From contig CM102285.1 of the NCBI GenBank assembly GCA_046563655.1, positions 4,278,001 to 4,342,000 on the forward strand: DNA of 64,000 nt, in the 5' to 3' direction. Position 1 is the first letter of the stretch. Each line of letters begins with the position of its first letter. The DNA comes from Yuukianura sp. NJ FZ-2021. Taxonomy: Eukaryota. The translations under genes were made by a program, and so were the position numbers. Positions 1 to 60,771 of this stretch are shown here, one piece after another. The notes beneath the pieces were generated by a model. The model ran no database searches. It was not told where the DNA came from and was given only the letters and a program-made list of their open reading frames with translations.

Positions 1-3000
1 TTAATCTTCTTGAAGGAAAATTCCTAAGTCAGATCTACCGCAATTCACAGACTAATTCCAATTGCTCAAAAACTGAAAGTTGTTACGGAGTACGAGGTAT
101 CCTAAAGGAGCCCATGAATCATATTCATTCAATTTTTCCTTCTTATGGTTCTAAACCAACCCTAACATTTCTTCTTCACTTTGGAATACCAAGGAGAACT
201 GGATCTGTATGATTTCAATTCAACTAGGTTGAGGCAGGTGATAATGGTAATTAATCTTTATTCAGGTGAGTAAACGAATCCCACACAATGTCCACTGGAT
301 CCAATGTACCCTTAACATATCAGTGACTGGCTCTCCTTGGAAGGAGACAAACAAAATATAGGCGGCAATTCAAGAAACGATTATCTAATCTTCAAGATGT
401 TTTTCAAGGCTTCTCGAGCGTCCCTTAAGGATCATCTTCAAGATTCAGACTGTTCGGAAATCTGGGGCCCTTCAATTGTTCCGTTGTATCGACAAAAAAT
501 TCTGATTCAAAAAACAAATTTCAAAGTGTGTAAATAACCGACTTTTTGCCTCTCATCCCTTCCCTCCAGAAGAAGATCAATTGAAGTCTATGGATCCTGG
601 ACAAGCAACTTACAGTATGAGATACGTCGTACAAGAATGGGAAATTGATGAGAAATGCCATCTGAATCGTGACATAATTTTCCGCCTCTGGGGCCTTAAG
701 GGCTCCTACATAGCAGCTCTGCCTTCTGGACTCGAGCCCTTAAAATCGCTTTTAGACAATACTTTACCCCTTTCTGTGGTTGGCCATGGGGGTGTTTTTA
801 TTATTTTTTATTAGACTCTCTTGTACTATCATTGAAGCTCGGCAGAATGTACTTTATGATTGCAGCTTCAAAGTAGAAGTAGGAAAGGGGCTTCAGAGGG
901 CCCTTAAGTCCCCATTCTTGTTTTTGCTCAAAAAGGTGTGTCAGTTCCTGCCGCTGGCCAAGTCCTTGGCCTTCCTTTCCCTTCTCAACAGTAATAATAG
1001 CCCATTTGCCCATTGCTCCAGAACACAAAAAAAAAGTTTGAAGGCCCTTGACAACACTGTAAGGGATAACTGTAAGGGGGCCCTGTGAATTCAAAACTTC
1101 AGAAAATAACAAATTAAGAGGCAAGGTTTTTGAACTGAAAATGAATGCAATTAATAACGGGCCCTTGAAGAAATGCCACTATAGACCCTTAAATTTTGAA
1201 TGGGTGCTTGGAAATCAAAAATAAGTTTAAGAAAACTTGAAATTTCGAGAGTTGGTTTGGTTATGATTGCAAAATGGTAAGCAAATACAAAACGAAAAAT
1301 ATAATAAGGTTTATAATAAGGTTTGGTTGATATCCTTTCATTTCCTTAAATGAAAATCAATTATGATTCAATTATGAGATCCTCATTTGTGAATATTCCT
1401 GAGATTTTTTTTTTTTTTGGAAAAACTTGAGTTCAAACAAAAGTTCAAACATTTTGAAAATTTTGATTTATATTTTTTTTTCTGGCGAAACTTTTTTCAA
1501 AGAGGGAAGGTTGCGTAACTAGAATTCGATACAACGCTGAACTCAGAAGCTCGCCCATTGTGTGTTGAATTTTTTGTTGAATTTGCAAGCGATACGGCAG
1601 ATGTTGGATTCGAAATTTTTTGAAAAGTCAGCTTTTCAGCGCGGTTGCATGTGGAGTATGAAAATGCTTAATACAGTCGGGGAGCTTTTGGAATAATATC
1701 GTACAAAGGAAAAGCTGAAAATCATCCATCCGAAATACTTTGCCCCAAGCCTCAATTTCCGCCTAATAGATGCGAGTTAAGTCCAGGCTGACGATTATGC
1801 TGCAACAACTTATTCATAATTAGCCACTTTGATTACAGAGCTGGGCAGGTAGAGTAAAACCACAGAAAATCATCAGCAGCAGAGCATGACATTGATTTGG
1901 AAACGCAACAGCACAAATGGCAGTCCTCCAACTGTCAAAATTCCAAGAAACTTTTTCGCATTTTTTCTTTAAGTTTTTCCAGTTTTTTTGTTTTTGTTTA
2001 GCAACATAAGCACTAGGATCAAATTCTGAATTTTTTCCTATTTTTCAAACTTATGCCAAAATTAGGTCATAATCCACTGGGATAAAAAAATTGAAAAGCA
2101 GCTGCTAGCAGACTCAGATTTAAAATTTGTAACAGGGGAGCAGAAACTGCTGAACTAAAAGGAAAGTGAACATGAGTTTTTTTTTTTTGAAAAACCTTGT
2201 TTTTAAAATTTGAGAATTTTCCCATGCGACGCTGAAACCTTTCCTGTGGTCTCATCCTTCTGTGCCCTAGATTTTGTCGCTTCTGCTGGTGGTCGCCTTA
2301 TGAAGAAAAAAGATGTGGCCTTTGAAACAAAATTTTTTCTCGTCTTGAAAAAAAAACGTCGGGATTGAATTTCTTTTGAGAAAATTTTCTCTCAAGCCTT
2401 ATTTTAAAAAACGACCAGTACAAAAACGGGTTTTACAGCACAGCAGTTACAAAAACGTTTACAATAATCACACAGTAAGGGAAAAAAATACTAAGAAAAA
2501 CTATCGAATCCCATAGCATTTGGTTCCGTTGATCATCGAAGGTTCAGGACAATGACCTCTGGTGACATGTGCAACTTAAATAAAAGTACGAAACTAAAAA
2601 TTTTGTGAAAAAAAATTACATCGCGGTGCATACTGACTTAATCCGTATTTGTTTAAAAATTTTACCTCCCAATTTTTCTTTCAAATACAAAACAAGTATT
2701 TGTATACTTGTATTAATACTGCTTATTTCTAACGCTTTTTTGTGCATTAACATGGTTTTTGCTATCAGTCACAAAAGTGAATTCTAAGTTTAGCGACGAC
2801 GTCAAAGTTTTTCGAAAAAAAAAAAAACAATTTCAAAATTTCACTTCCAGGAAAACATCTTAGAGGCTTCGTCAGCTCAGTAATTTGAGCAATATTTTGA
2901 ATCTTTTAAAGCAAAGTGCATTTTACTTTAGAGGCTTTTCGAACATGGTTAGAAATGAAGTGACCAAGCAGCCCTTAAGGGGTCTCCGGTTGGTGTCGAG

Positions 3001-21212: not shown

Positions 21213-24200
21213 TATGGTTAAGTGAAGATGAGCGATGAGTTGAAAGCACTGAATGTCATGGACATAAGAGAAGTGATAGTCTGTTGCCAGTGGACGACTT
21301 GACCTGTCGTGGACGTGTCACGTGAGTCCTAACTAATTAAGACAATAGGTTATTGTGAGGTTTAGGTTAGTGGGTATGGATTCACTCCACACCACTTCGA
21401 ATTGAGTTTTGACACTGAGACGACTCTGGACAGATCCTGCTCCTTTTTACTTCTGAACCGTGGGATATCATACCAACCAACCCTCCTTATCCATATGACT
21501 CTTTTAAGCTCTCTCGGGGACCAACATCTTCCAGCAGGCAGTTTATCTTGCCAGATTAACATAAATTGTTGTCAACAATTAGGGCTTTTTAGTCGCTCAT
21601 CACTTGACAACGTTCACTTTTAATTGCAATTAACACCAAGGACAGGTGAGATGCCTCTGTGTGGACAATGACCCCTTGTTTTTAACTTTATTGGAAATCA
21701 TGATTAAAACCGGCAACACTCATATTTTGATCAAAGTTGTTAAAAACATAAAGCGACACTTATGCACGGGCATATGTGAACCGCAATGTGTCTCTAAGGG
21801 CAACTGTCACATGCTCTTATGTAATACGTAGTGAGAGACGGTAAATGGCTTGGCTATTCTCGGGTTGGTAAAATTTTGTACGACGCACGGTACAAAAGTT
21901 TCCGTACATACGATACCCGGGATCATTGTTTTACCGCTGTTTGAGAAATCGTGATTCAAAAGTTTCAAGAATTGTGGTATAGGAATTTGGCATGTCAAAG
22001 TTCTTGTCGAAGGACACAAGTCCAGGTTCTGGAATGGAGAAGGCACACTGAGGTCAGGTCACGATTTCCCGTCACATCGTGTCCTGTGAGGTCGACTTTT
22101 GTAAATTGTCAAGTTCAAAGTACATGCAATGTTGCAAGCTGCAATTTGAATTTTAAGTCTCAAGATATTACTGAAATTACTAAACTGCTAAGGATGAGTC
22201 GTGTTTGAATCTGCATACAATGAAAGTACTTGGAACCAGCAAGCAGCAAGTAATGAATTGATTTTAACAAGTGTTTTCAGTTTTTAATCCATTCCTAATT
22301 CAATTCATTTTCCAACTTTTTCCTGTTTTTGAGTATTTTTCATCAGTGTTATATTAAAAAGCCGGTAACTTGATGCAATGTGTGGTAATGATTTTCAACA
22401 TCTTCCGCCGGAGACTGTAGTGGAGTGAGTGATGATGAGACTGTTTGTATAATTGTTTATGAATTCCAGTCATGTCGTGACTGACCGCCAATCCAGAATG
22501 AATGAGCAGAAGACAGGTGAGTTTAGAATGGCAACATTTAAGATTTTGAATGGGATTCGTCATTTCCAGTCTCCAGACTAACCTAACCACTCACACTAAT
22601 ACGAAACACACCGGAAGGAAACTGCAAAGTAGTTTTGGGATTAATCGTAGGAAAAGATGCTTCCTTTTCATGATTAAGGACGCATGTGCATTTAGCATTA
22701 AGAAAGGAAACACAAAATTTAGCATGAATGACTCTCGAGCAGTCTAAAATGCCACCGTGGGAATTCACAACTTGTGAATCCTGTTTTGGTTTTTGTGATT
22801 ATTATTAGCACAACTTTTAAACTTTTTGTTTAACTTCAGAACTTATACAAGCCTGTCAGGAAATCTTTGACTTCTTGAAGTTTTGAGAGTCTCTTGTACT
22901 CTTTAGGCTCTTCTGAATTGAAACATAACCAGACACTAATGAACGGTAACTTATTAGCCAGCGTTTCTTTGGAAGTCAGTTATGGACATTACACTACTGG
23001 ACAGTGACCTTCGGCTAGTTTTAGGCTAGGGTTATGTAAGTTCTGTACGTTTAGAGATGTAACTTCCGGACGCACTGTCCATAAGTGATCGTTCATGAGT
23101 GTCCGGGAATCGATTGTACATGCTTACAATAGAGATGAAGAGCAGGCATTAGTATTTGAATGGAAATCAATAATATTCCCACGCTTTTCCAGTGAGGCAG
23201 GAAGTGTCAATCAAAGGTCATCTGAGCCGTTTAGACTTGGATTGACACAGTTTCTGTCGTCTCCCCATGTGGGTGTGTCCATCTCTGTCCAAGGTCGTAT
23301 GATACTGCACATCCAGAATTCCAACCATTTTCTATTACAAGAGAATGTTATTTTCGATGAATTTGATTTCGAAACATTTTGAAAACATTGAAAAAGTGTT
23401 CTGCCTGAGTCAAGGGCCCTTGAAAGCAGAAGGGAGGGGGTACTTTTTGGTTGGATACCTCGGGCTCAGCATCACACCAAATATGCTGTCAATGTACGAA
23501 ATTATGGACCTTACTATCTTCAAAAGCTTCAAAATCCTAAAGGATACATCGGATTCTGAAAAATTGAAGGGCCCATGCACCACCCACCCGCAAGAATTGA
23601 GAAATACCGTGTGGAATGTTTAAGGGCTTAAAAAGTGTTAAGGGCCCAGAGACACGCTGAAGGGCTCGGTCGAACTAAAATATATGTTAGGCTGGAGGGC
23701 AGTGCAGTAAAAATGCAGTATCCACTGCAATTCCGTGTAGCTGTTGGTGCCCTTAAACTATTCTTCATTGTTACTAACCAACTGCTTCAGTATGTTGTTG
23801 AGGTTCAAGGGACCCTAGGGAGCCCTTCTTCCTTCCATTGTTTACTTCTGATAATACTGCTTCTGACAAAAAAAAACTAACCGGGCACAGGAGAAATCAC
23901 CCTCATATCCAGGAAGGATGTGTGCTAAAGGGCTCTATGCTCCACTAAATTTAGCTTCCTTTCTAAAAAAAATTCTGAAAATTTCGAACAATCCAAGCAC
24001 TTTGCTCAGGTTTTACCGTTTTTGCAACAAAAAAAAAGTGAAAAAGTAAAAAACAACTTACTATAATTTCAGACTTTGTCACGTGAATAATCTCACTTTA
24101 AATTTGACCAACATACTTTTCATATAGTATCTATTTTTAGCGACTAATGTCGCCAAATATTAGCATATGCTAACATTTGTTTAGCTTATAGTTTTTTAGA

Positions 24201-27200
24201 TTATTAGATAGAGATAATGCAAAAAATAAAGTTTACAACACGGAGAAGTTGACACTCTCGTGAAATTTTCATTTCAAATTAGCAAGGTAAAAGGTATGAG
24301 GTGTTTATTGCAGCAAAATCCCATATTTGGATGATTAATTACATTGTAGAGGGTGATTCATACTTTGTTTTGAGTCCTTGAAATTTGTATCACAAAATTC
24401 TAAAAACTGGGAAATTGTTTCTATTGAAATTGTACTAATCAGAATTAGAAATTAGAATTTTGACCTGGATCTGACTCATAATTTTTAACCAAAATGGGAA
24501 AATACAATGCCAAGGTAGGCTGCGCAGAAAGGTACTCATGCATGCGGCACAGGACACTCTTCAGAAACCTCACGCAATTACTAAAACTAATGTAACCTTA
24601 GCGTAATTCGTTATTAGCGAAAACATTCCCTATGGAATTTTAACAATAGGTTATGCACACCTATTTTTTCTGCAAATGAAGCTGGTTTCTGCAAATGAAG
24701 CTGTTTTCTGCATCTGCTACTTCCGTTCCTTGTGTCCGGCTCCGCACCTTTACTATACGGTTAGGTTTAGTCATCAAATTAATTCAAATCAAGAGCAGAA
24801 AAATGACAGCGGCACCTCAACTCTATTGTTTGTTCTTGGCGCCTTTAAGCCCGAGCTACACCGCTGTTTTATTTTGAAGTGAAAAATTCTGCAAAAAATT
24901 AATGATGCAAAAAAAGTTGAAATTTTTTCACATTTATTTTTTAGGTTTTGGCGCATTTTAAAACAATTGTGGTTGTGGAATAGGATGGACAGGTGGGTTT
25001 TGAGCAGAAGCTACACAGGAAAAGACTGATCTGAAATAAATTTCACCTTCTGCATAACTTTTCAGCTTGGAAGCGTGGTCATTTTTTCTTCCTGAAATTT
25101 CAACTTTTACATGAGAGCAAATACAAAAGAGAGCTACAACTACTGAAAAGATGAAATTGCGTTAATTCCCATACCCACCTGTCATCCGCTCTTATGTGCT
25201 CTCAATGTAATTGTGAATATGGAATTATCTGTACGGAATCAGGCAGAGCAGATGGAACGAACAGGAAGAACTTAATAGACTTGACCCCGCGTCCCTGCAA
25301 AAAGAAAAAATTCTGTCTTTACAGATCAAGACTCAGCTCGAAGTTGACTTTAGCATTATGTACTATGCGGTATATGCAATCTGGTTGCTAGGCACCGCCA
25401 GAATTCCAACCGTTGCGCAATCATGAATGCGCAGATCATATTATATCGAGAAAATAAATTTTTCGCTAAACTGCGGGCGGTTGATCGAATGCTAACTGGA
25501 TATTGCATTAGTTGTGTAAGAAAAATCCCGAAAAACGTTTTCGAAAAAACACTATTTTTGAATTTGAATGCAAACGAAGGACAAACTGCAGAAACTTTGG
25601 TCAAATATGAGCAAACATATCAAGCAGTCTGAAGAATTCGGTTGGAAGATGAGGCACACCGACTCTTTACAGAAAAAAGCACAAATTTTGCCGTTCGCTC
25701 TGTATACTTAAACTGTTTTACGAAAAATCATTCAAAATCGATGCGAAGGGTGTAACGGATCGCTTTGGAAATTTCGCCTCTTTGGTTTTGCTCTAAGCAT
25801 TTTGGCTCATCAGTACACTTAAGTGCACCAAAAAGTTAAGTATTTAGCATATTCATGACTCCCTTGCCTCTGCCACATGCCACTTCCTTGGAAGAAATAA
25901 GTAGTCACAAGAATAAGGCCAGACAGAAGGGCACAGGGCCCATTAAATTATTCACGCGACGGACTTAAAGGAGGCTTCAAGGACTGAACATAGGAGTTCA
26001 AATTCCAGCTGTTGTCGCTTCAGCCGCTTACTGCAGCGACTGCTTCAGACAACTTGAGCATCTCTGCGTATAGTTACTCCCCCCAGCTTGTCTTATACCT
26101 GGATCAATTAAGTTTCTGCTCGAAATGATGGATGGGGATGCACGGGACGACGGCAGCAGTGTCGGACCAGATGGAAAGTGCAGATGATATTTCATAATAT
26201 CTTTGATCTTCCTGAATTTACATCTTCAAGATCACGAACTAAACCACCAAAGTGGCCAACTTAACTAAAAAAAATTGTTCAAATAACGTTTCAAAATTGA
26301 ATTTCCAACTCTCAAGAATTGTTTCTCCTTTTTTTTTTTGCAGTGGTGAATCCCATTAGCTATATTGCATTATTTGAATTTTGAATTCAGAATTTTTTGA
26401 TTTGTGGCGTTTTTTCTTAAGAATACATTTTTGGGTCAAAAACGCCTGAAAAGTTGAAACTTTGAAAGTGGCGATTGGTATTATGTAGCAACTTCTGAAT
26501 GAGAAAATTTGAAAGATTTTTAGCCTCGGCACCTTCTAAATAGCTGGAATTTGCTTTTTGAATTTTTTTTGTTACGATATTAAAAAAGGAAGCGGCGTAC
26601 GGAGAGAGTAGTGGAGGCTAACATGAAAATTTTAAAATCACATTTTTAATCTTCAGCAGCAGTTTGAAGTAAGGTTGTTTAAATTTGTTTAGGATTTAAA
26701 AGCACTTTTGGAAGAGAAGCGATTTGATAAACACTCTTATGCAAGCGAAAGCGTTTCCCCTGCTGCACAACGTTTATGGGCATCACCTGGACTTAATTGA
26801 GAAACAATGAATTCGAATCTGACTTGAAGAGCTTCCGAGGGGTTGCTTTTAGTTGGTTTGGAATAATATGGAATCTAATCCAAAGCAATTTCCCCTTCAT
26901 TTCTGAATAAAATCCCAGTTCGGAGAGATGTCTAAAAATGAGATTTATAAATCAGGGGAGGGCAGCTGAAGGAGCCTCAAAGAACCGGGAGCGGATGCTT
27001 GATACGGGAATTTCAGGGGATCAAAAACTATTTTCTATTATTTTTGAACAGTGCATTCTCTAGTGTACAAGTATTGCAGGGCTCTTCCGTTTCAGGCAGA
27101 CGCTGTACGGAAACTTGCGCACGGAGGTTAGAAGCACTTGGAAAAAACTGAAACAGGCATTTCATCTTTAGTTTATGTGAAATTAATCTAACCTCACCTA

Positions 27201-29308
27201 TGCAGTTAATGATGAGGGCTGCCAAAAATATTTGCTACAAACTTTGAAGTATCGATTTCAATTTTTTAAATAGCCATAATATTTACTTATTCACCATTCA
27301 TGGAATGAGAAAATAAGTATTTACACAGTAGTAACAATTAAACCAAAAACATTCATTTTTTAAATTGTGTAGATATGAAATACGTTTGACAAGCATGCTA
27401 AAACAAATCCTACTAAAAGTTATATATGGATTTACTGCCGACGATGTGCTTAACTTTTCAGTCTAAATAACTAGGTAAAAATAATTAAAAGCAATGTGTC
27501 CTGTAATTAAAATTAAATTAAATAAATTAATTAATTAAAATTCAATAATTAAAAGCACTCACTTGTTAGATTTTTTTTTTAAATTATTTACTTATTCTCA
27601 GCTTTTGTTCTTCCATTCGATTGATTTCGTGAAAGCTCCAAGAAATTTTGAAAATCGGTCCGTTACTTTCCGGTTGTAGGTTTCCTGGTACGAGGGCCTT
27701 CTGCTAGCTGGCACACCGTGTCGTGTCGTAAATTCTGAACAGTTCAGGTATTAGTCTGCACACGAGCCTTTGAGAACAAAGCCCTTCGCACCTGGCGTGG
27801 GCCCTTGGAAAAAGTGAGCTAAGCAGTTGCTTTGGCTACTTTCAGGAATTGACGTACGACTCAAAACTATCCGCGTGGCAGGCACCACCCCTAAAAATCT
27901 GCTTCTACTTTACACTTCTGTCGATGAAGGGACACAATTTCAGGTCAATGATTAATGTTTACTGCAAACGTGGAAAAGTTGCTTCCACATTTCAATAAAT
28001 GTAAAAAGTAGAATTCAAATGAACCAGTGTGACCTTTGTCATCTTAATCATGTCTATTCATGTCATGGCGGCGACGGTGGCAGCAGTTGGAACTTCTGGT
28101 TTACAAAAACAGTGACAAGCCAATTTTTGTTTAGGGTGAATTTTAAGAGAAATTGATGTTAACCCTGTGACCCGTCGGTGTACCTTACACTCTTGGTCGC
28201 CTAGCATTGAATTCACAATGTACGGTAGCAGCTGGAACCCTGCGCGCATTAATGTTCGCTCCTTAAAACATTCTGTATCCTTCAATCATACTCTAATTGA
28301 CGACCACTCCGTAGGTCCCAATGTTAACAGCATGACCATGCAAACTATATGTGCAAAAAACTCTCTCTGCTTGGAAGAGTGGAACGATCCTGGGGTGTCC
28401 CTTTAACATTGCTTCTCCAAGCACAGACTTCCACAAATTCCATCTCAACTCAGAAACCAAAAGCATGGGAACGTTTACCAAAACCAGAATCTATTGCAAA
28501 ACTGGAAGTTTACTTTAACACAAAAAATGTAATAAAGTCCAGTTGCAATAAGTTTTTAGACAGATTTTAAAATTCATTTTTAGAACATAAGAACGAATCA
28601 CACAAGGTTGAAAATTAATTAAACATTAAACTTTCTAAACAGGTTCCAAAATGCCTACTTGGAACTTTGAAGATCAATCTCATTCTGCTTCTTCTCAGGC
28701 CTAACACAACTGCTAAAAAGTTGACAAAAAATGCTTTTTCAATTCTTATTCTTGGAAAATTTTTGTAATTAGAGAGACCACCAGTTTTTAACAAATTAAA
28801 ATAAATTCATTTTTAAACCCAATCGTAGATCCCAATTTTCGGAAGTTAAATAAAAGTTTATTTTAACGCACCACATTCCGAAATTTAATTCCACCGGTAG
28901 AAATCTTAGGCAATTCGAACACTGCATATGGTATTACTTTTTTACATTTACAACTTTGTTTTTCAGTTTCGAAAAGAGAACTGAAAATTTCTAATAATTC
29001 GAAGTTAAAAAACATACCAGCCTAAAATTTCGTTCCCGTGTAAGCAATTGTAAAGTCAAATAAATTCAGAGTACGGTTCCTTAAATTTTAAACACAACTG
29101 GATGGCTTTGGTTTTAGAAAATTGTAGTTAACACAAAGCTTAAAAGACGTTAAGCACTACTTCATTCTAACGTTCATGAAACACCCAATTCCCGTTTACA
29201 CATTACACCATTTACGCGCTTATACGAACTTTTAGAATGTTAGGATGAAGTAGACCTAGAAATGAAACCTAGAATGAAGTAGATTGAATCTGTCGGTTGC
29301 TTTTGACT

Positions 29309-30268
29309 TTAACAGTCGACTTCACCATCATCGGTTCTCTTTTTTTTTGCTGCAACCACTTCATCCCCTGGATCCAAGACTGAAGCCAAAATTTCATCCC
29401 CCTCCTCATCTGATTCCATGGACTTCATCGCAGCTTCCTTCACTTTCTTTGGAGTACCCAAAAAAGTGTCCCCTGATAAAAATGAAACAAAACAATGATC
29501 GAAACAAAGTGTGATATAAATCGGACTCCGATAAAAACGAAAGCGTGAATATTAAGCGGACTGTGAAAGGTGGGTAGTACATACCTCCTAATTCTGAAGT
29601 TGACACCACTCCCTGCTTTTGGTAATTCACTGGATTTTTCTCAAACAAACGTCGACGGACTTCAACAATAGTTTTTTTGATTCCACTGTCGTCCGGGGTT
29701 GACACTCCGCACATGTTACAAAAGTAAAAGTCATCTAGATGTAGGTAGGAATGAAAGTTATGGTTATGATCCGATAAGTACTTGGCTGATATTCCGGATT
29801 ACTGTGATATTGTAATTATCTGTGATATTGTAACGGACTGTGATATGTGAACTGGCTGTGATTTCGGTTATCTTAGGTTTTAAGTTATTTTAGTTAGGTT
29901 AATTGCTTATTTACCATGTATAAAAGCATCACACGATCGACAGTGTATCCAATTAAAGCGGTGGGTAGGTCGTGCTCTTCCCGGTACTAGCAACCGACAG
30001 TTAGGAACTTCACATCGACCTAATAAGACAAGAATGGTTCTGTATTGGAGTAATTTTGTAAAACGATTGATTGTGTATTTAGCATACCTGTCTTATAAAG
30101 AGCTTGATTCACATTCACCTGGCCGCAGAATACACAAAATCTATCCAGGCGCCCCTCAAATCCAGGAGTTTTGAACTGTTGTACAGTAGACTTTGACCCA
30201 CGACCTCGACCTGTGAATCCGGCTTTTGAGCTGCTACTTGAACTATTGCCTCTCCCCCGTGCGGACAT
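29309..30268 (-). CDS. Putative Helitron accessory/captured gene: PHD-finger-like protein, 4 exons, ~216 aa
   Basis: Exons 30268-30088, 30019-29915, 29785-29585, 29472-29309 join in frame through three phase-1 GT-AG introns. Product has RG-rich N-terminus, CVFC, then C-EVPN-C...WIH-C-RS-C-DAFI-H-AK-Y...FYF-C-NM-C, and an acidic tail with KKKR. The acceptor at 29786 has a weak pyrimidine tract. Confidence 0.62.
29801..29865. repeat. 18-bp spaced tandem repeat sharing the CTGTGATAT core, inside intron 2 of the PHD-like gene
   Basis: CTGTGAT(A/T)T at 29802, 29820, 29838, 29856. Confidence 0.85.
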
Positions 30269-30271
30269 GCT

Positions 30272-30400
30272 GAATCGTGATGTATCGACTAATCGTGATA
30301 TGTAACCGACTGTAATATGTAACCGACTGTGATATGTAACCGACTGTGATATGCAACCGACTGTGATATTCGATAAACTGTAATCGGACTGTGATATACA
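30272..30400. repeat. 17-bp minisatellite (TGTAACCGACTGTGATA)
   Basis: Four near-identical units start at 30301, 30318, 30335, 30352, with degenerate flanking units. Confidence 0.9.
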
Positions 30401-30744
30401 ACCATGCGTGATGCAAAAGGAACCGTGCTATGTATAAAGCGGAGCAGAGACACAAACCGTACTGCTATATAAAACCGAGCTGTGATATATCGTACGAACT
30501 CTCGCACTCCGGCACTTACAAAACTTCAGTGTGTTTTCAGACAGCAGGCAGTAACCATTAGGAGATTCTGATTTTGTTTCTTTCCAAAAACAAGTTTTGT
30601 TAATTGTCAGGTTAGATTTATTTGAAGTTAAAATACTTAACGTTTTCCATGTTAAAGTGTATTTCCTTTCATAGTTAAAGTTTTTACATTGTTAAAGTTT
30701 CATAGTTAAAATTAGTTTTCTAAATATAACATTAGGGATTTAGG

Positions 30745-31010
30745 CAATTGTACTTCTTGGTTGAAGTCAGTTGGAGTCAAACAATTGTAACCTCTTGATT
30801 GAGGACAATTGTAATCAGTTGTACTTCTTGATTGAAGTCAATTGAAATTAATTAATAGTCACTCTTGGTTGAAGTGAGCTATCGTTGTACAGTTGTACTT
30901 CTTGGTTGAAGTCAACTATAATTGTACAGTTGTACTTCTTGGTTGAAGTCAACTATAATTGTACAGTTGTACTTCTTGGTTGAAATAAACTATAATTGTA
31001 CAGTTGTACC
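30745..31010. repeat. 37-bp minisatellite (AATTGTACAGTTGTACTTCTTGGTTGAAGTCAACTAT) upstream of RepHel
   Basis: About 3 near-perfect units at ~30885-31008 (CTTGGTTGAA at 30901, 30938, 30975) plus degenerate units back to ~30745. Confidence 0.9.
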
Positions 31011-31054
31011 TAAATTGAATTTACTGTAATTGGACATACAGTTAGATAGGAATT

Positions 31055-34000
31055 ATGCCAGGAACAAAACGGGAATTGTCCATGACACCAGCTGCCGTGC
31101 GCAAGAGGCTTTACAGAGCAAATCGTCCGGCCGATCAAGTTGAGCAACAACGGCATGCTGCGAGGCTGGATGCCCAAATCAGAAGGTCGAACGCGACTTC
31201 TGAACAAATAGCTGAAAGAAGAGAAGCGGATAGATTGAGGTTTCGAAGACGAACCTTATATGACACCATATCGCAATCTGCAGTACAAAACACTGCAAAT
31301 TTTCTTGATGCACACAATGTAGATGAGCATTATTGTGGCCCAATGGATGCCAGGTGTGAATATTGCGGCTCCAAAAACTTTGAAAAAGAGCGAGCCTCAG
31401 ATAAAAAATTCACATCTTGCTGTGAAAAGGGCAAGATTAAATTGAGACCAATACAAGTTAATGATAAAATCGTGGAGTTAATGAAAGGAGAAAATCCGAA
31501 GTCCAAAAATTTTCTGGATTTTATTAGATCCTACAACAGTGCTTTGGCTTTTGCCTCGATGGGAGCTCAGGTTGCACCACCTCCCGGTTACGGACCTTAT
31601 TGTTTCCGAATTCACGGTCAGATCTACCACCGAACTGGACCATTGCATCCAGCTATTGGGGATACTCCACAGTATTCTCAAATTTATATTTTGGACACAG
31701 CAGAAGCATTAAATGCCCGTCTCGGGCAAAAAGCCAATTCTGGCTGCGATCTGACTCTGATGAATGAGTTGGGAATTCTGATTCAAAATATAAACCCATT
31801 CGCCGCTGCTTATAAAATGATGCGCGAATTTGAAATACAAGAAGAGCAAGCAGCCCAAGCAGAAGGTAGACTTCCTCTAGAAGTGACAATGTCAATTGTC
31901 AACAATTCCAGCAACGACCAAAGGAGGTATAACGCACCCAGATGTAATGAGGTAGCCATTATTTTTCAGAACGCAATGGGAGAGCCTCCATTTGACCGTG
32001 ACATACGAATTCATTCAAGAAGTCAAAACAAAACATTCCAAATAAGCTTTCTTCACAAAAAGTGCGATGCAATGACATATCCTTTGTTGTTTCCCTTTGG
32101 TGACAGCGGTTGGACAACAAACTTGACTGTGGACTTAGCTCTTAGTTCCATGTATCACAACAGTATGGGAAGTATTACCCCTGACCCAGAGCAGGATCCC
32201 GAGTACGAGTGTGTAAATGAAAGAAAAATCACTCAACTCCAGTATTATGCTTATCGCTTAGCTGTGAGGGACGAGTTCAATCCGATTCTAAATGCAGGAA
32301 AGCTTACTCAACAGTTTATAGTTGATAGCTATGTAAAAATTGAATCGTATCGACTAAATTTCATCCGATTCAATCAGAAACAGCTACGAGTAGATTCTTA
32401 TGCTGGAATTATGGATCATATTCATAACATTTCAGAGAATCGAGGTCTAAAAGCAGGAACTGCAGTTATATTGCCGTCTTCTTTTACAGGAAGTCCGAGA
32501 GCAATGCAGCAAAATTTCCAAGACGCTATGAGCATAGTGCGAAGATATGGAAAGCCTGACCTTTTCATTACAATGACATGTAACCCAAAATGGCGTGAAA
32601 TCACTGAAAACTTAGAACCATGGCAAAGCCCTGAGTTTCGTCCTGACTTAGTTGCCAGGGTTTTCAAGCTAAAATTCAAACAACTTTTGGAGGATATCCT
32701 GAAAAAAAATATCTTTGGAAAAGTAATCGCACATGTCTATGTGATTGAATTCCAAAAGCGTGGATTACCGCATGCGCATATGCTTTTTATCCTTGACAAT
32801 GATAGTAAGTTACGGACAGCCGAAGACATCGATAAAATAGTATCGGCGGAAATTCCAGACCCGGAAACAAATCCCAGATTGCACAAAATTGTGTTACAAA
32901 ATATGATCCATGGGCCATGTGGTACATTGAACCCTACGTCTGTTTGCATGAGTGAAGGGGTCTGTACAAAAAAATTTCCCAAAGATTTTTGTTCAGAAAC
33001 CAATCCCAATGTGAATGGATATCCAAATTACAAACGCGAAAATACTGGGAAAGTTTATAATCTTGGAAATAAGACCGTGGACAACAAATGGGTTGTACCA
33101 TACAACCGTTATTTGTCATTAAACTACAACAGCCATATTAATGTTGAAATATGCGCTTCAATAAAAAGTGTGAAATATCTTTTCAAATACATTTACAAAG
33201 GACACGACTGCGCAAACATAAGGTTTGACACTTTCAACTGGGACGAACCAGCGATGTACTTAGATACAAGGTATATAAGTGCTCCAGAAGCTATGTGGCG
33301 TATAAGGAAAGAAAAAATGGATGATAGGTCGCATGACATTAAGCGTCTTGCAATTCATTTGGAAAATGAACAGCAAATATACTTTGAAGACGGCGACGAA
33401 TTGGACGCTGTGGATGCAGCTATAGATAAAAAAATAACAACACTACAAGGATTTTTTGAGCTGAATAAATGCGATAGTAGTGCTCACCAATACACATATA
33501 TGGAAATTCCGGAGCATTATGTTTGGAAAAGAAAAATTCCAGGACAATTTATGCCAGGTTGGCAGAAAAGAAGGGCTCATTTTGGCAAAACCATTGGCAG
33601 AATGTACACTGTATCCGTTGCCTCAGGAGAACTATACTATCTCCGATTGCTCCTGCTTCATGTCAAGGGGCCAACGTCATTCAAAGATGTTAGAACCATT
33701 GATGGTGTCGTCCATGAAAACTTTAAAGCTGCAGCTATTGCAATGCAGCTACTCGCAGATGATTCACAATGGGAAAATTGCATTGCGGATGCAGTAACGT
33801 ATCAAATGCCCTCACAGTTAAGAGAGCTTTTTGCAATAATTTGCGTGTTTGGAGAGCCAACAAATCCCATTGAATTGTGGGAAAAATTCAAGGATGAATT
33901 TATTGAGGACTATATCAGAGAACATACTCATGAAATAGCTGTTCAAATGGCATTGAGAGATATTGATGATTCCTTGAGTTTACATAGAAAATCGTGTTCT

Positions 34001-35503
34001 GATTTCGGCCTTCCAATGCCAAGGGAAGATCTTGAGCAATATATACATCAAATAGATTTTGAGGCTATAGCTGCGGAAGCTAATGAGTTGGCAGGGATGT
34101 TAAATGAAGCACAAAAGGTTGCATTCGATGCAGTCCTCCAAGCGTATGTAGCAGACTGTTATAGTAAGTGCTATTTTATTGATGGACCTGGAGGAAGTGG
34201 GAAAACTTTTCTCTATAACACCATCATGAAAACTTTTCAAGGGAAGAAGCTGAATGTCTGCGCAGTGGCCTCCACAGGTTTAGCCGCCACACTTTTGGAA
34301 AGTGGGACAACATACCATTCCAGATTTGGTCTAGGTATAAAAAGCAATGAAACTACAACCTCAAAAATAAAACCAACATCCAAAGAAGCAAAACAGCTAA
34401 GGGAAGCGGCGATTATTATTTGGGATGAAGTCACAATGACGCCATGCTTTAATATGGACGCGGTTGATAGGCTCTTCCGTGAAGTAATGGGGATCAACAA
34501 GCCATTTGGCAATAAGCTCTTCCTAATCGGGGGCGACTTTAGACAAACATTGCCCATAGTAAAACACGGCGGAAGGGTACAGATTGTCCAATCCTCTGTA
34601 AAACAAGCCAAAGTGTGGCGCCATTTTAAATTCCTGAAGCTCCATCAAAATATGCGTACTTCTCCAGATGAAATTGAGTACAATCAATGGCTGCTAAGAC
34701 TTGGCGATGGAGAGCTGTCTAATGGTTACGGTCTTGGTGACGACGTAATTGAAATTCCAGGCGAATGTATCGAGGAAGAAGACTTAATATCCTCAATTTT
34801 TGGAGGCAGTATTACATTCAGTGATGAAACTATTAGCCAATTCGCTAAGAGAGCGATACTGACTCCAAAGAACGAAGACGTTCATGGACTTAATAATGAA
34901 GTACTCGATCGTTCTGACGGCGAGATAGTTACCTACTTCAGTGTTGATTCCGTGGCTGAAGATGGTGAAGGTAGCGTTGAAAACTTTCCAGTAGAGTATT
35001 TGAATACTATAAATCCTTCAGGTGTGCCACTGCATGCTTTAAAAGTAAAAACTGGATGTATTGTTATGCTGCTTAGAAACTTAAATCGGAAACTAGGCCT
35101 ATGTAATGGAACCCGACTCATGATTAAGTCACTAAAGCCTAATGTTATTCAGGCTGAAATCCTTGAGGGTAAATGCAAACGTTCCCAAGTACTAATTCCA
35201 AGAATTGACTTAGTACCTGGTGATACAGATTTGCCATTTGAAATGAAACGGCGACAGTTCCCCATTATGTTAGCCTTTGCAATGACAATAAACAAAGCCC
35301 AAGGACAGTCACTCGAACACGTTGGCATTTATCTTCCGATGCCCGTATTCAGCCACGGACAGTTGTATGTGGCTTTTTCCCGCAGTACTAAGAAAAGTAA
35401 TGTAAGGGTAAAAATATTAAATTCAAAAAATCAAGGCCAATTAATCAAAGGCCAAGACAAATGGTTTACAACAAATTGTGTTTACAAAGAGATTTTTCTT
35501 TAA
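31055..35503 (+). CDS. Helitron RepHel transposase (HUH Rep nuclease + PIF1-family SF1 helicase), 1482 aa, intronless
   Basis: Rep motifs PDLFITMTCNPKW, VIEFQKRGLPHAHML, KYLFKYIYKG; helicase motifs DGPGGSGKT, IIWDEVTM, GGDFRQTLP, LCNGTRL, QFPIMLAFAMTINKAQGQS, FSHGQLYVAFSR; N-terminal charged helical repeats and CxxC...CC zinc motif. Confidence 0.97.
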   Translation: MPGTKRELSMTPAAVRKRLYRANRPADQVEQQRHAARLDAQIRRSNATSEQIAERREADRLRFRRRTLYDTISQSAVQNTANFLDAHNVDEHYCGPMDARCEYCGSKNFEKERASDKKFTSCCEKGKIKLRPIQVNDKIVELMKGENPKSKNFLDFIRSYNSALAFASMGAQVAPPPGYGPYCFRIHGQIYHRTGPLHPAIGDTPQYSQIYILDTAEALNARLGQKANSGCDLTLMNELGILIQNINPFAAAYKMMREFEIQEEQAAQAEGRLPLEVTMSIVNNSSNDQRRYNAPRCNEVAIIFQNAMGEPPFDRDIRIHSRSQNKTFQISFLHKKCDAMTYPLLFPFGDSGWTTNLTVDLALSSMYHNSMGSITPDPEQDPEYECVNERKITQLQYYAYRLAVRDEFNPILNAGKLTQQFIVDSYVKIESYRLNFIRFNQKQLRVDSYAGIMDHIHNISENRGLKAGTAVILPSSFTGSPRAMQQNFQDAMSIVRRYGKPDLFITMTCNPKWREITENLEPWQSPEFRPDLVARVFKLKFKQLLEDILKKNIFGKVIAHVYVIEFQKRGLPHAHMLFILDNDSKLRTAEDIDKIVSAEIPDPETNPRLHKIVLQNMIHGPCGTLNPTSVCMSEGVCTKKFPKDFCSETNPNVNGYPNYKRENTGKVYNLGNKTVDNKWVVPYNRYLSLNYNSHINVEICASIKSVKYLFKYIYKGHDCANIRFDTFNWDEPAMYLDTRYISAPEAMWRIRKEKMDDRSHDIKRLAIHLENEQQIYFEDGDELDAVDAAIDKKITTLQGFFELNKCDSSAHQYTYMEIPEHYVWKRKIPGQFMPGWQKRRAHFGKTIGRMYTVSVASGELYYLRLLLLHVKGPTSFKDVRTIDGVVHENFKAAAIAMQLLADDSQWENCIADAVTYQMPSQLRELFAIICVFGEPTNPIELWEKFKDEFIEDYIREHTHEIAVQMALRDIDDSLSLHRKSCSDFGLPMPREDLEQYIHQIDFEAIAAEANELAGMLNEAQKVAFDAVLQAYVADCYSKCYFIDGPGGSGKTFLYNTIMKTFQGKKLNVCAVASTGLAATLLESGTTYHSRFGLGIKSNETTTSKIKPTSKEAKQLREAAIIIWDEVTMTPCFNMDAVDRLFREVMGINKPFGNKLFLIGGDFRQTLPIVKHGGRVQIVQSSVKQAKVWRHFKFLKLHQNMRTSPDEIEYNQWLLRLGDGELSNGYGLGDDVIEIPGECIEEEDLISSIFGGSITFSDETISQFAKRAILTPKNEDVHGLNNEVLDRSDGEIVTYFSVDSVAEDGEGSVENFPVEYLNTINPSGVPLHALKVKTGCIVMLLRNLNRKLGLCNGTRLMIKSLKPNVIQAEILEGKCKRSQVLIPRIDLVPGDTDLPFEMKRRQFPIMLAFAMTINKAQGQSLEHVGIYLPMPVFSHGQLYVAFSRSTKKSNVRVKILNSKNQGQLIKGQDKWFTTNCVYKEIFL

Positions 35504-35681
35504 ATATGAGAAAAAAACTATTACAAATAATTCAAACCATAAACGAGGGACTAACTCCTAGCCTCGATCTACGGATCAAACATTGGGCACGGGCATGGCC
35601 TTGGGGGCGGTTCCCAAGTGCGCTCAACCGTGAAATACAATGCATAACGCATAACATAATTAATGCATAAGTTTAAGGAAG

Positions 35682-35912
35682 ACTAGCTGGAGCCCGTGAT
35701 GTTTACACATCACGAAATTTACTTGAAAAGTTACAAGCAATTGGTCATTCTGAGTCAAAGGAAGAAGCTAGGGGATTTTTGACAAAATGTTAAAAATCGT
35801 CGACATACATTTCAAAAATCCCCGTGCTTCTTCCTTTGACTCAGAATGACCAATTGCTTGTAACTTTTCAAGTAAATTTCGTGATGTGTAAACATCACGG
35901 GCTCCAGCTAGT
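35682..35912. repeat. 101-bp inverted repeat (foldback) at the Helitron 3' end
   Basis: Arms 35682-35782 and 35812-35912 are reverse complements with 2 adjacent mismatches; 29-nt spacer. Confidence 0.95.
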
Positions 35913-38900
35913 TTTCTATAAACCACTAAATTCAAATTGCCGAAAAAATAGTTTAGAGCGTTAAATGTACGTCCAAAAAAACTCTTCATGGACAGTTTTC
36001 TTTTCAAAATTTCAAGTATATCGATAAAATGGGAACTTAGTTTTTTTTTCTTGGCGCAAATTAAACTCGAACATAAACGTTTTAGCATTTTAGAAACAAA
36101 TCATAAAAAGAAAAAAAGTGCATCTACACACTTTTTAAGTTTGAACGGATTTCCACATAGTAGTAACATAATCAGTCCAGAGTTGCATTCAATACATTTA
36201 CGCAAATGCCTCCGACGCTTTATGCATTACGTAAACGATGAATGTCGTTCGTAACAGAAAAATTTACAATACGACGGGGTTAGCCAACATGCTTTCGTCA
36301 CTCTCACAAGCATGAGGAAAACAGAATCCAGAGGGAGGGGATGAAAACAAGGAGCCCTTGGAACTGAACTTTCATTGGATTATTTTATTATGTTTACATT
36401 ATTTTATTTATATTATAGAATATATTGCCCATGTCTTTTAAAGTTTTAAGCGTAGCGTATTGGCTCATTGCATTGAACAAATTCCATTGTTCCATTAATC
36501 CATGACGAAGACACAAGGGGAAGATGATACTCCCCGTCTGGAGGAAACTTCGGTCCCTATAAGGGCCCCTCCCTTAGTAAACAATTCAAAACTTGACCCT
36601 GTCCCTGTTCCTTTGAGGCTTTTGGAGGACACGCACTTGGTGTGTCCATAAGGGCTCCCTTATCTCGCCATCACTTAAAAGCGGATTAACGGTACTCTTC
36701 ATTCCAGATTCGAATGTGAAACAGTAGTATGTAGTTAAGGGCTCCCTTAAAAAACCTCCGAACCACTCCGGCATGCGAACCAACTGGTTTTCTTTTTATG
36801 GCATGGGAAAGTGAGAACCCTGAAGGGCTCGAACCCCTTTCTTCAAGAATGGATGCGTCCCTTGAACCAGTTCCAGAATCCACAAACAATGAATGAGGAA
36901 ATGCTGATGAGAGACTGATTCAAAATGCTCTTTCGTTCAGGGGAAAACAGTATGCAGGGCCCTTCAACAATTTCCATCTTCGTGCTCAGAATAATAAATA
37001 GAGGGAAATTGGTGGGTTTTAAGTCCCGGTTAGTCCAGAGAATAAAAACAATCAAAGGGCTCCTTTCGTTCTGCTTCAGTATCACATAAACGATCTCTGT
37101 TCTAACAATTTTAAAATGTCTGAGAAAGTGGAAATTAAAGAACTATGAAATCCGGGGGGTTCCATAACTTTCCCACCGGAAACAATCAAATGGAATCACA
37201 GCGGTCACTGCTTTCCCCACATAAGGCGACTAAAAATACTCAAATTACTACTATGATTTCAACAGCTCATTGGTGTCATGTCATTTGTTCAATCTAAACA
37301 GTTCTAAACTAATTCGTTCAAATGAAAATGTTCAAAAGTATTTACAACACTATGCACACCTAACCTCTCTTGGAAACTATTTTTGAACCAATCCGCCATT
37401 TGAACCGCTTGATTTTAAGCAAAATCTATTTGAGCAATTCGATGTGAACCACCGGTAGCTCGATCCTGAATTTGACATTCATTTATATTTTTCTAAACTT
37501 TTTGTTTAGAAAAATATTAGAAATACAGGACAGAATCTATTTACAGAATTAGAACAGAATATGTAACCAAGCCTAACACCAACAAAAACATAAGCGTAAT
37601 AAACCAAAAACATAACCTACATACCTTGTAAATCATAACACAAATACCCACTAAACTATAAAAAACGTTGAAGCATATAGTATTTTAGTACATTTTAGTT
37701 CCGATTTGGAATAATTTTAGTATCTTAGATTTTACATTAGTAAGAATTGGACAATTTATTTTATTCTCTTGAATATTTGTAGATTAACCGTAAAACATTT
37801 TATCCTTTCCTTTCGATTTCTTCAAGAAAATGAATAATTTATACGCTAACAAGTCTTTTTTTGTCCATGCACTTACATGTAAAGTGTCTATAAATTATTC
37901 AAAACCAAATATTCGCCAATAGTTTGGAAGCTATCAACCATTTGAAATGTTGGACAAAAGGTTTTAAGGAAAATTGTTTAGGAAAAGACTAAACAATTTT
38001 AAATTAAAGGTACGTTTTACTTTTTCATTGGCTTTGAATTCTTAACAAATCAATAGTTTAATTAATAATGTCTAAACATAAAATGTAAAAGCTAAATTAA
38101 ACAGGCGTCTTCCCTCTTTCTCTTCAGCTCAAATCCCATTAAGACATGGAATAACAGCCTTCATAATTATTCACAAAAGTTCACAGTTAGTAATAAGTCG
38201 AACATTGGCTTATTACTTGCTCAATTTTTAAGTAAAGTTCAACATTTGAGAACCAAGGAACGCTGTTCACTGGAAACAAAATGTCACTTTTGGAGGTAAA
38301 GACGAGAAGCACATGCTGTTTGCTGGTGAGTTTCCAATCGATGGAAATAGGCGATGCATGTACAACTATTCAACTCCGTGTTTTTAAGTGTTCGTTAAAA
38401 AGAGTTTTATAAAACTGTTTGGTTTGCTGATTTGGAACGACGTGGCTTTGATAGTACACAGAGTTTTTTTTTTTATTTTCAATTACGAATGGGTTGTGTA
38501 AGTAATATTTTTCTTCTTTTTTAATCATCCTCTCCTTCCATTAGAACTGCTCCTTGCGAAGACACATTTGGGGAAACGTGTATGTTATGTGTAGTGTAAA
38601 TTATTCGCGTTTTCAATCAAGGGTTTGTTTGAGGATTCAGGTTGAAAAAAATTTATCTGAAAATCATAAGAAAAAGTTTTGTTAGTTCCCTTATAAGCAA
38701 GAAATCATAAAACCCGACCCCCACGGCAATGCCATTGTTCTAGGGTTCTGTTTCATTTATAATGAAAAAAAAGACAAACTTTTATGAACTTTGTTTCGAT
38801 AAGTGTTTCAGGATTTCGCAAAATGTTTGAAGGATGGTTCCACCCTACGCAAAAACTCCAAAAATGTTCTAGTATGTCATGTGTTTAGTGTTAAAATCCA

Positions 38901-39014
38901 CGATAGTTTCCAGTTTAGTGTAAATCACAACCAAAATAACTAGCATTGTAAGAAAATTCGATGGCTGCCCTCATGATAAAGAAATATGCTTACTTGTATT
39001 AATTTCGGCATGAC

Positions 39015-41474
<2,460 letters not shown>

Positions 41475-47006: not shown

Positions 47007-48581
47007 CTTCGTCAGGTTCCGTTTCTGAAAAATCGCTTAGTAAAAGTTGTTGTTTCGCGTTTCCTTTTCTACCTCGACATGTCGCTGCAAACTACTGGTA
47101 ATTTTGTCTAAAAACGCCCTTAGTTAATCGGTAATCCAATCCACTGTGTCCGGACGAAACTAAAAATTCTGCCCGAAGTGTGATGTGTGAATAGGACGAC
47201 GGGTTCGTAAACATTCATCTAAGCAGACTTGGATATTCTAAAAATAAAAACGAAAACAATCAGCCCGAATCTTAAAATCAACATTACATAACTACGAATT
47301 CGAAACCTTGTTTAGATATTTTGTGCATGTACCTTTGATGTTCGGTTGAGATACTTTTGAGCACTACTCCTTTCATGCGAGCTGTAAGAATGTTCCGCTG
47401 AAAAGCAAACGTTGAATGACCGACGGGAGAAAGTTGAGAACCCAAATTAATATCAGTGTATGCTTCTTAATTAGTAATTTATTCAATCGATTCCAGTGTC
47501 CATCCAGTCCAATTCCAGCAGATTCAACTTAGATTCTCTTTTTCTCTTCCTCGATGGAATTTTATTCTGAATTAAATTTTAAAGTGAATTCGTGGACTCT
47601 TTTCGGATTTGGCACTGCAGCTGTTCGTTTTGCCATGATTTGTGAATTGCAATTCCACACTCAACTTCTCTGTTTTCATGATTCCGAGTTGGTTGAAGTA
47701 AAGTAGGAATTTCTCATGTAACGGTCTCGGTCTCGTCCCTATTGTTTACAAAGTACAAGTTATGGTTGCATTCAAACCAATACAAAAACTAAAAACAGCT
47801 AAGAATTTCCACTTCTTTCTCAATGAACTGTTAGTAAATTGCAACCTGTAACTTATGTTTTTGAAACCTTTAATTTTTTGGGATACCGTAAAATTATAAA
47901 GTTTGTGAAGAAATCTTAACGGAAACCGCATCAGATCCAATCAGAAGGACAACGTATGACAGCCTCCTCTCAACCAGCTAACAAGAGCGAATTAAATACA
48001 CAGTTTGTACCGCAATAATAAAAAAAATTAGGTGACCACATAATAGACACTTAGGACAACTCTGCGTAAGTTTATGTTTATGTTTATGAATATAAAGATA
48101 TTCAAACTCCTCCCCTTTTCTCAAAAAGTTACACTGTGGTGATTAATAAAAGTTACACCCAGTGCCACTAACATTTAAACTAATGACAGGTCAATTCAAA
48201 CCACAGTTTTTTTATTTCCACTGTTTACAAGAAAGGGAGCATTACTTTACTCCAACCTGAAATTTGGTTTTGTTTTGTAGTTTGGTTATTTTGATAGTTT
48301 CCCAATCGTGAACGCAAAACAACAATTTTTTTCATTTGATAAATCATATCAATGTTATTTTAGATTGTAAAGAAGACTTTTTTTAAAAGTTAAGAGCAGA
48401 CTTTGATTTATTCTTACGTCGCGGTATCGGAAAAGTTCATTATCTCCTGTATTCCTTCTTCCATCTCCGCTTAATAAGGAGGAGCTGGAGTGTATCGCAC
48501 GGAGATTGGATTCGGAAAATCGTATTAATCCAGTTCGGGTGGTCAAGTCAGGTGAACACTGCTTTAGATTGTAGTCAATCC

Positions 48582-48792
48582 GGCAGGAGTAAGGCAGAGT
48601 CCGTACGGCTTAATTTTCCGTATTCCCTCCGGTATCCCCTCCAATTGTTGCTGATGCAATGCTGCAAGTTAGGTTAGGTTAAGTTCTGTCACAGCGTAGC
48701 CAAATTGGGCAACACTGGAACACCAACAATCGGAGGGGATACCGGAGGGGATATGGAGCATTAAGCCGTACGGACTCTGCCTTACTCCACCC
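48582..48792. mobile_element. 211-bp MITE with GG...CC termini and 8-bp TSD (Merlin- or MULE-like)
   Basis: TIR core GGAGTAAGGCAGAGTCCGTACGGCTTAAT (48586) is perfectly inverted ending at 48788, with imperfect pairing further inward; GTCAATCC direct repeat at 48574-48581 and 48793-48800. Confidence 0.85.
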
Positions 48793-48879
48793 GTCAATCC
48801 GATTGTACATGGTAATATGGCTGAATTTGAATTGTTGTTAACTTAACCTGACTTAAACTTTTCATTATCTTAGGGCAAA

Positions 48880-60580: not shown

Positions 60581-60771
60581 TTCTAATGCCACATGCGCAC
60601 TCCACTCTCAGAGCATGGCAAGGCAGTCAGGGCCGTAACCTTTTGCGCTAGGATTCTCCATCCTAGTCTACACTTATGTGAAATAAACTGTTAACCCCCA
60701 GTTGCATTAGTTAGTTTGGCTCCAAACTACTAAATCATAATAAATTTAATAATATTAACTTTAACATTGCC

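Follow-up and report, generated by a model that had tools for sequence, protein, structure and literature searches.

Does a spliced gene that lies head to head with a Helitron transposase gene belong to the transposon, and what might its protein do there? The question is raised by a 64,000-nucleotide stretch of the genome of Yuukianura sp. NJ FZ-2021 (GenBank assembly GCA_046563655.1, contig CM102285.1, positions 4,278,001 to 4,342,000 of the forward strand), which we refer to as the window. Here, a four-exon accessory gene and an open reading frame (ORF) for the transposase RepHel are found within one complete Helitron with exact ends. The locus is probably an element-borne two-gene design in which an accessory protein of a new family may aid the element.

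A complete Helitron carrying two genes

The limits of the element were read from empty sites among four public runs from two studies, one (X1) from organism A and three (X2, X3 and X4) from organism B, whose contigs were aligned to positions 23000-41000 of the window at a likeness of at least 80%. A contig from X2 joins 28285 directly to 35912, skipping 7,626 bases that begin with TC and end with AG. In X1, a 1,616-nt contig, with a left part of 593 nt and a right part of 1,013 nt, joins 28286 to 35921 with TTTCTAT between, and an X3 contig has the same joint; this is the X2 site, differing by one base in an A run. Empty-site joints are present in three runs (X1, X2 and X3), with both studies represented. 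The filled site in the window reads ...CTTCAA, boundary, TCATACTC......CCAGCTAG, boundary, TTTTCTAT..., and the segment between the boundaries is as follows.

28286..35911, plus strand: whole autonomous Helitron, 7,626 bp, delimited by the empty-site contigs, lying between A28285 and T35912 without a target-site duplication

The termini, TC at the 5′ end and CTAG (35908-35911) at the 3′ end, conform to the canonical 5′-TC and 3′-CTRR, and insertion between A and T without duplication is likewise canonical. A hairpin scan places the expected short GC-containing hairpin, an 8-bp stem (35880-35887 with 35892-35899) closed by a loop of 4, at 8 nt before CTAG. Because the A and T at the borders, TC, CTAG, the absence of a duplication and the hairpin are the defining marks of a Helitron, the segment 28286-35911 is a complete canonical Helitron (HLE1). 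Its transposase is also intact.

31055..35503, plus strand: RepHel ORF, 1,482 aa from the ATG, uninterrupted and intronless, identified by Pfam matches and motifs

This ORF combines the HUH Rep domain and the Pif1-type helicase of canonical Helitrons, matching Helitron_like_N (3.1e-64), PIF1 (3e-57) and Pif1_2B (2.5e-17) in Pfam, and its translation shows the motifs HAH, YLFKY and GPGGSGKT. With RepHel as the query, no contig was found among viral contigs.

The accessory gene (29309-30268) also lies inside the element and is skipped together with RepHel in the empty-site contigs, which shows that it rides on the transposon and does not belong to the host at the Helitron-free allele. A preliminary description of the locus, made from the DNA letters, had proposed a two-gene Helitron and had named a host gene present at that allele as an outcome that would overturn it; the contigs bear out the proposal. 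Its divergent layout also stands: the accessory ATG at 30268, with A at -3, is 786 bp from the ATG of the Pfam-matched RepHel at 31055, and the genes are head to head. The site is empty in organisms A and B, which are related individuals or species, although both contain 64-71% of the sampled words of the accessory gene, which points to movement or segregation since the genomes diverged. The Helitron has probably been mobile recently.

The start codons are separated by a region built of repeats, some of which extend into the accessory gene.

29802..30488, minus strand: span of the ATATCACAG motifs, with three inside intron 2 (29802-29846) and five ahead of the ATG (30327-30488)
30295..30369: 17-nt tandem array, 4.4 copies, carrying the proximal ATATCACAG motifs
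30807..31009, no strand assigned: tandem array of a 37-nt unit, 5.4 copies, next to the RepHel start on its upstream side, within the 786-bp intergenic region

The 64-kb window contains eight exact ATATCACAG motifs, and all of them fall within 29802-30488 and read in the sense of the accessory gene (8 observed against 0.39 expected; none of 100 shuffles reached 8). From this shared, repeat-built divergent region we infer element-specific regulation and not a freshly captured host promoter. Within the leader, an upstream ATG opens an ORF of about 38 codons (30289-30405, minus strand) that spans the 17-nt repeats and stops shortly before the main ATG, possibly an upstream ORF of the accessory transcript. 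The sequence TATATAG occurs at about 30470, and Rfam has no match in the window.

The accessory gene and its relatives

As first drawn, the gene has minus-strand exons at 30268-30088, 30019-29915, 29785-29585 and 29472-29309, 651 nt in total, which gives 216 codons and a TAA stop. Each of the three introns has GT..AG borders and phase 1, and the exons join in frame into the 216-aa protein that the preliminary description had computed. The exons show no similarity to RepHel, and the window holds no second copy of them.

Homology searches used separate exons or the ORF of a relative as queries, not the full-length spliced protein. Exon 3 as first drawn (66 aa), searched with phmmer against 1.84 billion representatives, gave 17 matches at E<=1e-3. 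Five were taken as relatives (P0001, P0002, P0005, P0007 and P0009; E 2.7e-8 to 1.7e-4), each with one matching segment of 43-53 residues (47-60% identity) and none belonging to a Pfam family. The other 12, in which short repeated stretches matched, were set aside as spurious: C2H2 arrays (P0003, P0006, P0011, P0014), TPR proteins (P0004, P0008, P0010, P0012, P0013, P0015, P0016) and an Ig-repeat protein (P0017). A profile search, in which 4 of 1,197 candidates passed, added P0018. Five relatives are singletons, and all six derive from environmental contigs of 1-2 kb from JGI, ENA or Logan. No annotated host homologue from NCBI or UniRef proteomes was found among the 1.84 billion representatives or 5.8 billion clusters, and a word-based search for exon 3 within longer proteins returned 10 candidates, none of which scored.

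A three-sequence alignment of the family, used as a query, found one locus in metagenome contigs (L001, 1,756 nt), none in viral contigs and none in prokaryote genome contigs; an alignment of six sequences varied too much to serve this purpose. Exon 2 is identical to the L001 ORF at 17 of 34 residues (50%, E 2e-11), and tblastx against L001 gives colinear blocks on exons 2, 3 and 4 and nothing in the introns. The alignment consensus is (D/A/H)FY(F/V/Y)CxxCG..PDPxGxKKxIVxxRRxLFxKxP...G..ST..LGG-GDxxFxTPKK. Three relatives run uninterrupted across the exon 3/4 junction, reading LGGD(T/S/K)xF(A/S)TPK, and P0009 carries an in-frame insert of 28 codons exactly at this junction, which reads as an intron at the same place as ours. 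The acidic motif SDEEGDEIL of exon 4 recurs in P0007, P0009 and L001.

These comparisons uphold the exon 3/4 junction of the original gene structure and shift the start of exon 3. Similarity to L001 begins at 29735, not at 29785, and upstream of the (D/A/H)FY(F/V/Y)C motif the relatives differ from each other in the manner of read-through intron. The pyrimidine fraction is 0.74 before the AG at 29736-29735 and 0.48 before the acceptor first chosen. The alternative acceptor lies 51 nt downstream, keeps the frame and removes 17 His-rich residues. Given the start of similarity, the divergence upstream of it and the better pyrimidine tract, exon 3 probably runs from 29734 to 29585, which makes the protein 199 aa long instead of 216, although both forms may be in use.

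30088..30268, minus strand: exon 1, with the ATG, an RG/Ser-rich N-terminus and the first CxxC; placed by the ORF and the GT donor only
29915..30019, minus strand: exon 2, with the Cx4C and HCRSC pairs; placed by identity to the L001 ORF and a tblastx block at 30035-29910
29585..29734, minus strand: exon 3 as revised, with DFYFCNMCG and a conserved basic helix; placed by tblastx, the alignment, the acceptor tract and the phmmer relatives
29309..29472, minus strand: exon 4, with GDTFLGTPKK, the acidic SDEEGDEIL and a basic end, TAA at 29311-29309; conserved in P0007, P0009 and L001

In L001, a 60-nt in-frame stretch (214-273) separates the equivalents of exons 2 and 3, where our gene has intron 2. 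Either a GC..AG intron or a coding sequence that adds a CxxxC could account for it. The residues TFIAD of a relative, once considered as a match to the end of exon 2, were dropped, as L001 shows a probable in-frame intron tract here.

Because conservation in another organism is limited to the exons, the accessory gene is a real protein-coding gene under long-term constraint. None of the public runs found with the gene is recorded as RNA; the run X4, labelled 'DNA?', nevertheless bears on its expression. Its contigs skip six CT..AC-bounded intervals in a casein kinase 2 alpha (CK2-alpha) gene at 38656-40684 and have zero depth in intergenic bins, and for these reasons X4 behaves as transcript-derived. 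The kinase gene itself, on the minus strand, was recognised by eye from its ORF translation as casein kinase 2 alpha-like and of animal type. X4 covers RepHel, including a 2,248-nt contig over 33436-35692 with 39 differences, and the 3′ part of the accessory gene. There, a 755-nt contig matches 29083-29241 and 29271-29471, its match ending one base short of the exon 4 acceptor, with 239 letters unplaced among the rows listed. The pattern fits a spliced transcript from a copy that is 94% alike but does not prove one.

Organism B holds at least two versions of the accessory gene region. In X3, a variant lacking 30171-30661, a stretch with the ATG, leader and motif arrays, is as deep as the full form; X1 and X2 contain a form without 30563-30741 in the repeat region, and X2, X3 and X4 share a replacement of 29 nt by 87 at 29241-29271. 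Two exon differences occur among those listed, a synonymous one at 29598 and a change of V to A at 30007. Summed contig depth, a poor measure of copy number, is about that of the flanks over 29010-30812, and shows no extra close host copy of the gene.

Several observations weigh against an accessory gene that works for its element. Exon 1 has no relatives in the word-based homologue search, and L001 ends before it. Splice joints of the accessory gene are absent among 15 of the 36 contig joints in X1-X4. The L001 copy, at least, is decaying, because it is frameshifted before the acidic motif. No RepHel is visible on the short L001 contig. The gene there is oriented towards a putative Helitron 3′ end and shares its sense, an arrangement that differs from the present one. 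That end, about 1 kb downstream of the gene (1537-1575, plus strand), consists of an 8-bp CTG/CAG hairpin, 7 nt and CTAG followed by T (1571-1575); 32 of 2,000 shuffles reach the pattern, and it is possibly a true terminus. A link of the gene to Helitrons in other organisms is thus only hinted at, and constant pairing with RepHel has the DNA of one relative to go by. Finally, in X2 and X3 RepHel has about double the summed depth of the accessory region, and in X1 the excess is greater and uneven, because of which some RepHel copies may be without the accessory gene.

Such points could be taken to mean that there is no functional gene here, and that decayed or chance ORFs form a mosaic in the 5′ region of the Helitron. 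The lack of an RNA junction among the joints listed, the unsupported exon 1 and the X3 deletion variant would fit. Against it stand four in-frame exons with consensus GT..AG introns and a 47-60% identity that occurs in exons only and continues across a splice junction, and we regard a mere mosaic as extremely improbable.

A stronger case can be made for a passenger, that is, a host gene with introns that was captured by a Helitron lineage and is perhaps expressed, yet useless to the element. Helitrons are known for gene capture, according to the HELIANO survey (PMC11417382). The accessory gene has three introns whereas RepHel has none, its region is less deep than RepHel, and the L001 relative is both frameshifted and differently placed with respect to the putative Helitron end. 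However, only six short environmental fragments resemble the gene and no annotated host homologue does, no extra depth betrays a close host paralogue, and the gene is complete, with a start, a stop and intact splice sites. It also shares its repeat-studded control region with RepHel and carries the 9-mer array ATATCACAG in its leader and intron. We consider a passenger unlikely. The skipping of the gene at the empty allele, the restriction of its relatives to environmental contigs, the absence of extra depth and the Helitron-like hairpin of L001 argue for an element-borne gene rather than a conserved host gene.

The accessory protein and its possible role

The 199-aa product contains cysteines at positions 45, 48, 63, 68, 87, 90, 101, 104 and 199, the first eight of which are spaced CxxC-x14-Cx4C-x18-CxxC-x10-CxxC. 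They would most simply form two C4 zinc sites of the zinc-ribbon or knuckle type. The N-terminal 44 residues are RG/Ser-rich with a pI of 12, and the last 49 have a pI of 4.4 with a basic KKKR near the end. A basic helix and an F-x-TPKK motif are conserved across the family. All features first pointed out in the translation, namely CVFC, HCRSC, FCNMC, the RG-rich start and the acidic and basic tail, are present; the interpretation placed on them, a divergent PHD finger behind a histone-tail-like N-terminus, is not supported.

PHD fingers follow a C4HC3 order, C-x2-C ... C-x2-4-C-x4-5-H-x2-C ... C-x2-C. In the accessory protein, 18 residues separate the second and third cysteine pairs and there is no H-x2-C. 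Correction of exon 3 turns the stretch that had looked PHD-like into CxxC-x10-CxxC. No Pfam PHD match was obtained at E<=10 for exons 1-4 scanned singly, for the exon 1 ORF, for the 125-aa L001 ORF (P0019, equivalent to exons 2-4) or for P0007 and P0009. Neither the exons singly nor the ORFs of the relatives match an OB-fold or Rep_fac-A family in Pfam; sub-threshold matches on the L001 ORF are to Zn_ribbon_3 (E 0.015) and Zn_ribbon_6 (E 0.14). The family profile has no match among all PDB sequences (best E 0.35), and the best ESM Atlas score, 0.83, is under the lead threshold. An AlphaFold2 model of the L001 ORF from an eight-row alignment has a mean pLDDT of 49.7, with the cysteine-rich half below 50, and is too poor for a fold search; a hairpin and helix around the last CxxC reached about 74.

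Could the protein nevertheless read chromatin as a PHD-type factor, or imitate a histone tail, and thereby, like VANC, direct integration or keep the Helitron from being silenced? It is cysteine-rich with a basic RG-rich N-terminus and an acidic tail, it would be co-expressed divergently with RepHel, and Table S11 of HELIANO places PHD in Helitron-like elements (PMC11417382), which makes such cargo not implausible. The reading fails on the absence of a PF00628 profile match, in exons or relatives, and of C4HC3 spacing in the corrected protein, and no PDB match supports it. The likeness to histones comes down to three residues, S-x-RG, in an exon without known relatives. The protein resembles neither a PHD finger nor a histone mimic, and we judge this explanation quite improbable. 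From sequence comparison, it appears to represent a previously undescribed family without a Pfam model, with six fragmentary relatives.

What, then, might a new family contribute to its Helitron? In the explanation that we favour, the whole segment 28286-35911 would have entered a site between A and T as one piece. Its 786-bp divergent region would drive two genes, the intronless RepHel and the three-intron gene for a basic protein of about 199 aa, and the latter would serve as the element's own nuclear nucleic-acid-binding zinc factor, acting on element DNA. One option is that it handles single-stranded rolling-circle intermediates, as RPA-like proteins are thought to do in other Helitrons; another is that it binds the ATATCACAG arrays of its own leader and intron and so regulates the divergent promoter. 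A role in binding nucleic acid in the nucleus, whether single-stranded intermediates or ATATCACAG arrays, is suggested by the charge layout, the cysteine pairs, the sub-threshold zinc-ribbon matches, the motif array, the position of the gene and its conservation, and we put it forward tentatively, as a possibility that falls short of probable.

Two comparisons are of use here. Retroviral nucleocapsid proteins and the C4 ribbon of RPA70 likewise have CxxC pairs flanked by basic, RG-rich segments, a likeness in how they may work only; the accessory protein differs from zinc-knuckle and ribbon chaperones in that it has no profile match, Zn_ribbon remaining sub-threshold. VANC proteins are anti-silencing proteins of Arabidopsis VANDAL (Mutator-like) elements, and short tandem repeats are their binding targets. 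Both systems pair a transposon-borne non-transposase protein with short tandem repeats near its gene, but they belong to different transposon superfamilies and kingdoms, and the present protein is set beside VANC by description, not by sequence. In a much bolder version, the zinc module would bind the ATATCACAG arrays and keep the divergent promoter open, giving silencing evasion or self-activation, while ARGRG...GRGRG would provide arginine-methylation decoys for the methyl-arginine readers of germline small-RNA pathways. This is very improbable; if true, it would give a rolling-circle transposon of animals a functional counterpart of plant VANC.

Termini, derivatives and place among known Helitrons

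The ends of the element are more abundant than its interior, as the following features show.

28286..28600, plus strand: 5′ terminal region beginning with TC, of high copy and shared with non-autonomous derivatives; inner limit approximate
35683..35911, plus strand: 3′ terminal palindrome of 229 nt ending in the terminus, an inverted repeat of high depth that pairs 35683-35911 in a fold of -182 kcal/mol

In X2 and X3, the summed contig depth in the bins 27808-28408 and 28409-29009 is about 10-40 times that of the flanks, and likewise in the bin 35621-36221. A joint from 28304 to 35682 in the contigs marks a short derivative with little beyond the two ends. High-copy termini and a short derivative are as expected of a family with many non-autonomous members. 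We considered whether the autonomous element is nested in a short palindromic one, and rejected this; the break points (28304/28305 and 35681/35682) have neither A before TC nor CTRR before T.

The 3′ palindrome, within which the small hairpin is embedded, is near-perfect, with 112-nt arms that are 96% complementary. The left arm repeats the 3′ terminus in inverted form, including a CTAG of its own (35683-35686), and the high-copy short derivatives break exactly at 35682. A terminal palindrome of this length is unusual in a canonical Helitron. The 12 nt at 35671-35682 agree by eye at 9 of 12 positions with the reverse complement of the real 3′ flank (35912-35923); this may reflect a target preference or flank captured from another copy. 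Two further palindromes lie elsewhere in the window. At 60171-61563, a perfect inverted repeat of 472 nt (100% complementary, 449 nt between the arms) is made of 32-nt tandem units and has the appearance of a foldback-type element that is independent of the Helitron. At 48581-48793, arms of 85 nt with 86% complementarity are separated by 43 nt.

A second gene on a Helitron is not in itself new. The HELIANO survey (PMC11417382) reports that 20 extra Pfam domains are stable components of Helitron-like elements, that 17 of these occupy separate ORFs and that an OTU domain occurs upstream of RepHel; PHD (PF00628) is among the domains of its Table S11. Since separate-ORF cargo, PHD included, is catalogued there, the two-gene Helitron is a known kind, PHD cargo would not be new either, and the novelty ascribed to the arrangement in the preliminary description was overstated. 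Like HLE1 Helitrons with an RPA-like or OTU ORF, the present element has RepHel and a second, separately transcribed gene inside TC...CTAG, and as with OTU the extra gene lies upstream of RepHel (PMC11417382). It differs from these in that the protein has no Pfam family and no OB-fold, protease or endonuclease signature, and in that its gene has three introns and stands head to head with RepHel. With the PHD cargo of HELIANO, it shares a small cysteine-rich domain on a Helitron-like element; here, by contrast, PF00628 is unmatched, and the protein has four Cys pairs and no H-x2-C.

What is new is a cargo family without a Pfam model. The copy is also of unusual quality, in that its ends are known to the base, an empty allele exists, RepHel is intact and there is transcript-like cover. 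A literature search, confined to sources outside subscription journals and Repbase, found no Helitron accessory gene of this type. To our knowledge, such genes have so far been catalogued via Pfam domains. Pfam-based surveys would miss cargo like this, because it belongs to a conserved family without a Pfam match.

Active or recently active Helitrons are, as far as we know, rare in animals. With its precise ends, the empty allele, the intact transposase and the transcript-like cover, the present element is a good candidate for a transposition assay. If the accessory protein were a mere passenger, the locus would be a case of ordinary Helitron gene carriage; if it were needed for transposition or expression, it would represent a new type of helper for rolling-circle transposition.

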